Shown here piece by piece: positions 52,139-52,327 of a DNA stretch of 64,000 bases; position 1 is the stretch's first letter; the number at the start of each line of letters is the position of its first letter. Source of the DNA: an uncultured Gammaproteobacteria bacterium. Its GTDB lineage: Bacteria; Patescibacteriota; Microgenomatia; Levybacterales; GWA1-39-11. The notes under the pieces were generated by a model. That model searched no databases. It had not been told where the DNA came from and was given only the letters and a program-made list of their open reading frames with translations. The stretch is taken from positions 17,867 through 81,866 of the forward strand of contig CAYVAJ010000003.1 of assembly GCA_964448725.1 (NCBI GenBank), read 5' to 3'. A program made the translations under genes and the position numbers.

Positions 52139-52188
52139 CGGGATATCGTATAGTGGCAGTATGTACGCATGGCCCCGTCTAACGGGGT
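52139..52188 (+). other. tRNA-like 5' fragment (acceptor strand, D-arm, GCCCC-GTCTAAC-GGGGT hairpin)
   Basis: CGGGATA-TC-GTAT/AGTGGCA/GTAT D-arm; acceptor strand is the exact complement of the 3' strand at 52320..52326; no T-arm follows. Confidence 0.4.
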
Positions 52189-52197
52189 AAAGGTGCT

Positions 52198-52268
52198 CGG
52201 GGAATAGTTTAACGGTAGAATGTACGGCTGGGGGTCGTACGGCCGGAGTTCGACTCTCCGTTCCCCGA
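52198..52268 (+). tRNA. tRNA-Pro, anticodon GGG
   Basis: Manual cloverleaf: acceptor CGGGGAA/TTCCCCG, D-stem GTTT/GAAT, anticodon arm TACGG-CTGGGGG-TCGTA, 4-nt variable loop, T-arm CGGAG-TTCGACT-CTCCG, discriminator A; 71 nt. Confidence 0.85.
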
Positions 52269-52279
52269 CTAGTGCGCTT

Positions 52280-52327
52280 GCCCCGTATTGACGGGGTGCA
52301 GCCTCGGTTCGATTCCGAGTATCCCGA
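52280..52327 (+). other. tRNA-like 3' fragment (GCCCC..GGGGT hairpin, 5-nt variable loop, T-arm, acceptor 3' strand, discriminator A)
   Basis: GCAGC-CTCGG-TTCGATT-CCGAG-TATCCCG-A; no matching 5' acceptor or D-arm adjacent. Confidence 0.4.

Follow-up and report, generated by a model that had tools for sequence, protein, structure and literature searches.

Disrupted tRNA genes are known in archaea, where they occur with bulge-helix-bulge (BHB) introns and as split and permuted genes. In bacteria, to our knowledge, they are known only with group I and, very rarely, group II introns. Here, a locus is described at positions 52139-52327 of a 64,000-nucleotide (nt) stretch of contig CAYVAJ010000003.1 (assembly GCA_964448725.1), which is called the window below. 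It stems from a genome of the Patescibacteria (candidate phyla radiation, CPR) with ~36% G+C, and all statements on this genome refer to the 64 kb covered by the window. What sets this locus apart is a bacterial tRNA gene, tRNA-Pro(GGG), that is interrupted by short non-ribozyme hairpins and by a complete tRNA gene with the same anticodon.

In Patescibacteria, group I introns interrupt the genes for tRNA-Asn and tRNA-Asp at position 35/36, and their splicing was confirmed in vitro (Nakagawa et al., 2026, PMC13011429). tRNA-Pro was not among the intron hosts of that study, and nothing nested was described (PMC13011429). The window locus shares with these introns the patescibacterial host, the 35/36 site, the presence or absence among relatives and the lack of a target duplication. 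In addition, a run of four G allows its boundary to be slid to U33/GG...GG/ (slashes mark junctions), with a 5' exon ending in U and an insert ending in G; this placement is not forced. However, the locus has no P3-P9 catalytic core (no RF00028 match at E ≤ 10) and carries a whole tRNA gene. Furthermore, group I tRNA introns comprise ~200 nt or more, whereas the inserts found here measure 19-108 nt (19, 75 and 24 nt in the window).

Archaeal disrupted tRNA genes, be they multi-intron with transposing introns, split or permuted, resemble the locus in that one gene can contain several similar short inserts and the exons rebuild a normal tRNA. In contrast to them, the host is bacterial, as seen from RecA and the ribosomal protein operon, its halves are collinear instead of being separate genes, and a tRNA with the same anticodon forms one of its intervening sequences. 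A BHB motif has, at the splice sites, a 4-bp helix with a 3-nt bulge on either side. Drawn by hand and not searched for automatically, such a motif could not be formed at 35/36 of the window locus or of two related loci (L021 and L030, see below), where the GUAA before the 3' junction cannot pair with G30-U33.

Genomic islands and prophages reportedly integrate into tRNA genes at the anticodon loop, the T loop or the 3' end, as Williams is said to have described in Nucleic Acids Research in 2002. Common to them and to the locus are the tRNA target, the anticodon- and T-loop sites and an incoming DNA that makes good the lost tRNA. The locus differs from them in its size (~75-130 nt) and in lacking an integrase and direct repeats of attachment site (att) type. 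Moreover, integration restores the tRNA by a duplicated 3' part, whereas here a whole new gene is supplied. Engineered tRNA scaffolds, attributed to Ponchon and Dardel (2007), are said to carry an RNA in the anticodon arm of a tRNA. As in these, the acceptor, D and T body is intact, and a long helix with a passenger RNA replaces the anticodon loop. Scaffolds, however, are an engineered tool, whereas the passenger found here is a tRNA expected to be cut out by ribonuclease (RNase) P and RNase Z. Hairpin elements of the insertion sequence IS200/IS605 type or the repetitive extragenic palindromic (REP) type are acted on by a Y1 (HUH) transposase and have a fixed tetranucleotide at the insertion point, whereas the bases 5' of the three inserts in the window differ (ATGG, GTGC and TGCG). 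A full-text literature search for nested tRNA genes yielded nothing relevant.

A tRNA-Pro(GGG) gene nested in a second one

ARAGORN and Rfam report a single tRNA at the locus, a tRNA-Pro(GGG) of 71 nt at 52198-52268, below termed inner or B-type tRNA. Its Rfam score is 55.6 bits for RF00005 (gathering score 29), and ARAGORN classifies it as tRNA-Pro(ggg). Proline identity depends on G72, A73, G35, G36 and G37. All of them, including the pair C1-G72, are present in the inner tRNA (CGGGGAA...CUGGGGG...UUCCCCG-A). An intact orthologue of the inner gene stands alone in another contig, L154.

The inner tRNA is flanked by two outer tRNA halves, for which neither ARAGORN nor Rfam at E ≤ 10 gave a match. 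The outer 5' segment comprises CGGGATA (52139-52145), the D arm GTAT/AGTGGCA/GTAT and a hairpin GCCCC-GTCTAAC-GGGGT (52172-52188). The 3' segment consists of a hairpin GCCCC-GTATTGAC-GGGGT (52280-52297), the T arm CTCGG-TTCGATT-CCGAG, TATCCCG (52320-52326) and A52327. A first-pass annotation, made from the letters of the window, had already described disrupted halves around a complete tRNA-Pro(GGG), and all its pieces lie where it had placed them. It had also considered that standard tools might call three ordinary tRNAs, or that the halves might be plain pseudogene fragments. Instead, one tRNA is called, and the halves match a live orthologue exactly.

RecA served to reach relatives, as did a single scan of GTDB genomes for a degenerate pattern of D arm and anticodon. 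The closest genome found is L010 (CAZIAP010000005.1): its RecA is 93.8% identical and its recA DNA 76% identical to that of the window, and 48% of third positions differ in codons for the same amino acid. The gene order glycosyltransferase-tRNA-recA is the same, and the tRNA-Pro(GGG) of L010, CGGGATATCGTATAGTGGCAGTATGTACGCATGGGGTGCGTGCGGCCTCGGTTCGATTCCGAGTATCCCGA, is uninterrupted. The outer 5' segment agrees with it in 34 of 34 bases up to anticodon G35, the outer 3' segment in 29 of 29 bases from the variable loop onward, trailing CA included. With 100% identity over both stretches to an intact syntenic gene, the halves are no chance look-alike. The syntenic site holds an intact tRNA-Pro(GGG) in L009 and L007, too, and no tRNA in L002-L006. 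Because of the intact gene at the same place in L010, L009 and L007, the outer tRNA is the site's resident gene. The outer halves are the A-type tRNA-Pro(GGG) gene of the glycosyltransferase-recA spacer, here in interrupted form.

When three inserts are removed, four exon pieces (34 + 5 + 5 + 29 nt), all on the plus strand, restore the L010 gene and the trailing CA in 73 of 73 bases. E1 (52139..52172, tRNA positions 1-35) is identical in 34/34 bases to L010 7065-7098. It comprises the acceptor 5' strand, the D arm, the anticodon-stem 5' strand and A32 U33 G34 G35, and shares 71% identity with the inner tRNA's 5' half. E2 (GGTGC, 52192..52196, positions 36-40) is required for the exact rebuild. 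E3 (GTGCG, 52272..52276, positions 41-45), the least certain piece, completes it. E4 (52301..52327, positions 46-73, then CA) is identical in 29/29 bases to L010 7109-7137 and contains the end of the variable loop, the T arm, the acceptor 3' strand and the discriminator A. The 8 nt TACGCATG between the D arm and the first hairpin had previously been taken as extra. They are outer tRNA positions 27-34, i.e. the anticodon-stem 5' strand with A32, U33 and G34.

The three inserts are likewise read on the plus strand. I1 at 35/36 (52173..52191, 19 nt, CCCCGTCTAACGGGGTAAA) is a hairpin CCCCGT-CTA-ACGGGG followed by TAAA. I2 at 40/41 (52197..52271, 75 nt) consists of T, the inner tRNA as delimited by its call, and CTA. 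I3 in the variable loop at 45/46 (52277..52300, 24 nt, CTTGCCCCGTATTGACGGGGTGCA) is composed of CTT, a hairpin GCCCCG-TATTGA-CGGGGT with the stem of I1, and GCA. L010 has neither I1 nor I3. The insert amounts to 129 nt in total, and its open reading frame (ORF) content is one spurious antisense ORF. Alternatively, one 122-nt insertion could be combined with the replacement of GTGCG by A. The parse into three inserts is plausible and is favoured because TAAA/GGTG forms the 3' junction in other nested loci (L021, L030), too, and because the variable-loop hairpins of L030 and a further locus, L158, similarly copy the stem of their own 35/36 helix.

The outer gene, orthologous to the intact tRNA gene that occupies this site in L010, is not a contiguous cloverleaf able to mature: anticodon loop, anticodon stem and variable loop are all interrupted. 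Under either parse, it cannot fold as a tRNA unless the non-ribozyme inserts are removed. The minimum-energy fold has I1 paired with I3, so that a long helix encloses the inner tRNA. The nearest-neighbour energies of this fold (-87.5 kcal/mol) and of the branched cloverleaf (-51.8 kcal/mol) do not decide which of the two forms.

The first-pass annotation had read the first hairpin as a possible anticodon arm with the anticodon CUA, had found that both hairpins look like a target-site duplication and had listed trans-spliced or split halves as a further explanation. Some features speak for these readings: the loop GUCUAAC has U33-like and A37-like bases on either side of CUA, and the two hairpins are near-identical direct repeats. 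The hairpin, however, is absent from L010, its first G is G35 of the outer GGG anticodon, and its homologue in L021 and L030 is the base of the helix around the inner tRNA. UAG decoding does not agree with stop-codon usage either. Among the 42 long ORFs of the window, 29 end with TAA, 11 with TAG and 2 with TGA, the latter thus being rare, yet used. Since TAG is an ordinary stop codon, an amber suppressor is not expected. The uninterrupted target contains only ATGGGGTGC and no hairpin sequence, which is at odds with a target-site duplication, and an integrating element would have to manage with a 129-nt insert that lacks an integrase. Trans-spliced or split halves do not fit either, as the two are separated by 129 nt and follow each other in order on a single strand. 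An amber suppressor, trans-spliced halves and a hairpin target-site duplication are, therefore, hardly credible.

Other candidates were rejected. For a group I intron or another known ribozyme, an Rfam search at E ≤ 10 over 51900-52600 returned the inner tRNA plus noise only. A body like that of transfer-messenger RNA (tmRNA) does not agree with G3-C70, found instead of the G.U pair at 3:70 that confers alanine identity, and no tmRNA was called. If three tRNA-Pro genes in a tandem array had suffered two deletions, CCCCG/CGGGG could be acceptor strands, but the extended inverted repeat that surrounds the inner tRNA would be left unexplained. A single duplication of GGGGTGC as the target site fails at the right flank.

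An assembly artefact was rejected as well: an independent Logan assembly from another read set (L001, SRR12487014) contains the identical nested sequence, and loci of the L021 and L030 type were found in several independent assemblies. The species of the window is present in SRR12487014 and SRR7082966, and the L158 type stems from groundwater data sets. Population variants of the window locus were not seen; look-ups with RecA and the glycosyltransferase gave short contigs that break inside the T arm. The pattern GCCCCGT-N3-4-ACGGGGT has two copies at the locus, compared with none in 100 shuffles. No further GCCCCGT..ACGGGGT is present in the 64 kb, so within the window it is not a genome-wide repeat.

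Nested loci in other genomes

A metagenome scan for the junction and the GTDB scan revealed further nested loci, and four distinct nested sequences are known in all. They have the junction ATGG/CCCCGT ... ACGGGGTAAA/GGTG in common. Only the last four bases (GGTG) of the 14-nt junction motif ACGGGGTAAAGGTG match the host tRNA exon. The I1 motif CCCCGT...ACGGGGTAAA brackets the inner tRNA at the same position in L021, L030 and L158. In L021 (Microgenomates group bacterium Gr01-1014_5), the outer gene is B-type and the inner gene A-type, the reverse of the roles in the window. L030 and a second haplotype (L158, L159, L161) have an A-like outer gene that encloses an A-type inner gene. Judging from a neighbouring C39 peptidase gene, these contigs probably belong to Parcubacteria.

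The inner tRNA of L021 and of L030 caps a helix of 14-15 bp, which extends from the anticodon loop of the outer gene, whereas the counterpart of this 35/36 helix in the window is a bare hairpin with a CTA loop. When L021 is compared with L030, at least one base pair of the helix is compensatory, and L158 has a C-to-U change that retains a G.U pair. The stem of the variable-loop hairpin of L030 and L158 is a copy of their own 35/36 helix; in L158, the stem CCCGTAC/GTACNGGG is present three times.

All nested hosts found are tRNA-Pro(GGG) genes. They lack a target duplication, and sister genomes contain intact 'empty' sites. One of these is L154, a relative of L021, where the L021 site holds a B-type gene that is intact and to which the outer gene of L021 is identical in its 5' half, T arm and acceptor. 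At its 3' junction, however, L021 has the A-type exon sequence GGTGCGGCCT where B-type has GGTCCGTGTG. Its insert, therefore, stems from an A-type gene that was already nested, and exon sequence came along with it. Same-site presence or absence in sisters, the fixed junction, the missing target duplication and the carried-over exon sequence are the reasons why the insertion is likened to homing elements. As to the earlier idea of remnants of an integration or excision event at a tRNA gene, the insertion event is close to the best reading, but the att-type integration is not upheld.

The nested gene could also be a one-off, a dead pseudogene left when two tRNA-Pro genes happened to recombine illegitimately, without a specific mechanism or any wider significance. 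The instability of the locus, where the tRNA is present, absent or nested among close relatives, would suit such an event, as would the insertion/deletion decay of L021 and its relative L155 (see below). By contrast, the same junction recurs in independent loci of different patescibacterial lineages with both A-type and B-type hosts, and the nested state has persisted through the split of L030 and L158. A one-off rearrangement is, thus, very unlikely.

A phage origin was considered and dropped: scans of viral contigs with the junction motif yielded chance 14-mer matches only, and no match lay in a tRNA context together with the CCCCGT partner. With the 5' half of the B-type gene, the viral contigs gave no match.

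Some related contigs show further peculiarities. L153, a relative of L021 with a 78% identical DsbA-like neighbour, contains at 1880-2480 a G+C-rich, ORF-free stretch of ~600 nt where L154 has the intact B-type tRNA. It ends with ...CGACCAAGTTAAACTC and retains just the last 3 nt of the tRNA and the 3' flank, without a tRNA or an Rfam match. The contig of L007 (RecA 90% identical, SRR7082982) ends exactly at ...GTATTTGCGCATGG (this end is also written ...GCGCATGG), the base where nested and intact alleles diverge. L160 and L162 begin within the inner tRNA, at an 18-nt D arm common to both genes, outer and inner, and L151, L152 and L001 break inside the outer T arm. From the ends of these six contigs it follows that assembly breaks cluster at nested tRNAs. 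L007 may conceal another nested or polymorphic locus.

In L015, a metagenome-assembled genome (MAG) of Saccharibacteria (CAYGLL010000011.1, 4692-5000), the 3' end of a tRNA-Pro(GGG), GGTTCGACTCTCGGCAGCCCGAACGTAGC..., is repeated ~190 nt downstream. This is a classical att-type duplication from an element integrated at the tRNA 3' end, a pattern that the window locus does not show. The MAGs L010, L012, L018 and L024 are labelled Gammaproteobacteria or Pseudomonadales, and the last three carry the same tRNA-Pro type as L010. L010 shares gene order and a 93.8% identical RecA with the patescibacterial window, and the public labels look wrong.

Decay and constraint of the nested gene and its proposed expression

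With moderate confidence, we propose an intron-like, hairpin-bracketed insertion at 35/36 that disables the host tRNA-Pro(GGG) and supplies a replacement gene, whose tRNA RNase P and RNase Z would release. In the A-type resident gene, an insertion into the anticodon at 35/36 would have brought a complete B-type tRNA-Pro(GGG) and a second hairpin copy in the variable loop. Most likely, it was made at the DNA level by site-preferring recombination or gene conversion. The whole 189-nt unit would be transcribed from the promoter of the resident gene. RNase P and RNase Z would then excise the inner tRNA as the working tRNA-Pro(GGG), which would read CCU and CCC. The outer halves, unable to mature into a tRNA, would serve as structured leader and trailer of the inner tRNA. 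In agreement with this, CCT and CCC are in use: the proline codons in the 42 long ORFs are CCA (209), CCT (160), CCG (47) and CCC (30). A promoter-like extended -10 box, TGCTACAAT, is read on the plus strand at 52122..52130 and ends 8 nt upstream of the first base of the outer tRNA. A TACAAT-type box, TACAATACT, is retained at the same distance upstream of the orthologous tRNA in L007 and is found in L006, too. The box at 52122..52130 is the likely start of a single transcript spanning the outer halves and the inner tRNA.

Decay of the outer gene is visible in other nested loci. L155, L156 and L157, which are close to L021, have kept the inner tRNA, but a deletion between two CCCGA repeats has removed all that lay between its 3' end and that of the outer gene. 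In addition, they have gained a 30-nt insert in the D loop (L155 ~1964-1993). In L021, an insert of 70 nt (3383-3452) disrupts the T loop of the B-type outer gene. Neither of these two inserts resembles the CCCCGT hairpin. In L158, a 5-nt insert follows the acceptor strand, and a third hairpin is present at 31/32. L030 and L158 share a G30xA40 mismatch.

Several observations weigh against the proposed replacement of a disabled host gene. The loci have no linked protein gene in common, and no enzyme, transposase or integrase could be tied to any of them (the window proteins were not scanned for transposase). A consensus promoter scan made no call at 52122..52130 on the plus strand. The missing 10-mer can be rebuilt from at most two ordered blocks in 7-9% of composition-matched shuffled inserts. 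The outer parts are also better conserved than expected. Between L030 and L158, the outer exons differ in 1 of 75 and helix plus hairpin in 1 of 66 positions, whereas in the adjacent gene 22.8% of third positions differ in codons for identical amino acids (P about 9e-8 and 8e-7). A plain leader and trailer need not be as conserved as this. The 9-nt spacer that follows the inner tRNA differs at 5 positions between L030 and L158, changes that could be one templated event. Furthermore, 8 of the 9 insert sites lie where the tRNA is unpaired (P = 0.009), which also fits an RNA that still folds and functions. In the window and in L021, the outer exons are identical to their intact orthologues, although the flanks are just 76% (window) and 85% (L021) identical. 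Hence, there is continued selection on the outer parts, an exchange of nested units between lineages, or a young age of all nested states. The last cannot hold for L030 and L158, which leaves selection or a recent exchange for this pair.

Such constraint would be explained if the nested gene encoded a functional composite RNA, in which the outer body is kept as a scaffold or tRNA-like RNA that stabilizes the inner tRNA, times its release or has a role of its own, but never decodes. Outer exons, helix and variable-loop hairpin are conserved while the 9-nt spacer varies; acceptor, D and T arms are intact in the window, L030 and L158; and three lineages share the architecture of an outer tRNA, a long helix from its anticodon loop and an inner tRNA at the tip. 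On the other hand, L155 manages without the outer 3' half, and other relatives have no tRNA at all at this site. On general grounds, pairing of leader and trailer beside the inner acceptor stem is expected to hinder RNase P and not to help it, and no function can be named. A composite RNA is, therefore, considered unlikely.

The same constraint could arise if the outer gene were a multi-intron tRNA gene, from which hairpins and inner tRNA are cut out and the exons ligated, e.g. by a helix-recognizing endonuclease and an RtcB-type ligase, so that both outer and inner tRNA mature. The exon pieces rebuild the intact orthologue exactly, the outer exons of L030 and L158 are conserved far beyond the neutral expectation, and those of two other lineages are identical to intact orthologues. 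The inserts avoid stems, and those within one gene share a stem (CCCCGT/ACGGGG in the window, CCCGTAC/GTACNGGG three times in L158), as a common recognition would predict. In addition, the pattern is like that of archaeal multi-intron tRNAs. However, the inserts of 19-108 nt contain no ribozyme core (none in Rfam at E ≤ 10), and no BHB motif could be drawn by hand at any junction. Cuts by RNase P and RNase Z would leave overhangs of U and CUA, which do not join into exon sequence. Nor would splicing be expected of outer genes with the 5-nt non-hairpin insert between acceptor and D stems of L158, or with the G30xA40 mismatch of L030 and L158. The outer gene of L021 lacks a complementary anticodon-stem 3' strand and contains the 70-nt T-loop insert, and in L155 the outer 3' half is lost. 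Maturation of the outer tRNA by splicing is, thus, distinctly improbable.

A broader proposal is tentative and rather doubtful at present. In Patescibacteria, a hitherto undescribed class of small hairpin intervening elements (CCCCGU...ACGGGG plus ~4 nt) might target the loops of tRNA-Pro(GGG), chiefly at 35/36. They might multiply within a gene, carry a complete tRNA gene in their loop and move from one tRNA-Pro gene to another together with exon flanks, while the host exons would be under purifying selection.

Genomic setting and further hairpins in the window

The 304-bp spacer that holds the nested unit (189 nt) is bounded by recA (50916-52025) and by the gene for a GT4 glycosyltransferase (52330-53544), both on the minus strand. 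The surroundings of the locus include recX, recA and genes for ribosomal proteins, and the nearest named relatives of its RecA are from Levybacteria and other Patescibacteria.

A different hairpin family, CCCCGATG(A/T)ACATCGGGG, is present at 60911-60928 and 61180-61197. The two copies are 270 nt apart, and each is followed by T(A/C)AAAC. Both lie in a region of ~520 nt (60845-61370) with no ORF of at least 55 aa and no real Rfam match. Within it, 60880-61230 folds as one long imperfect palindrome (-114.9 kcal/mol, z = -6.3). The region looks like a small palindromic element, similar to a miniature inverted-repeat transposable element (MITE), or an unassigned structured RNA. Positions 1-13 of the window are the end of another copy of the CCCCGATG family (CCATCGGGGTAAAC), which adjoins a tRNA-Leu(TAA) gene (28-112, minus strand). 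The sequence CGGGGTNAA occurs 6 times in the window, compared with 0.63 expected occurrences, and a similar-looking hairpin, CCCGACCAGATCGGGGTCAA, is found at 58068-58093 on the minus strand.

Conclusions

The junction of the nested loci is common to Microgenomates and a probable Parcubacteria lineage, and the roles of host and passenger are swapped between genomes. Standard tRNA finders report one gene where two histories exist. This affects tRNA inventories and, for these reduced genomes, the completeness estimates based on them. Should the elements be mobile, they would be smaller than any other gene-replacing selfish unit linked to tRNA genes to date. If the host exons stay selected, either the elements are removed by a non-ribozyme bacterial splicing route or the nested RNA itself is functional. 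If the exons are rejoined, bacteria would have a protein-dependent route of tRNA splicing.

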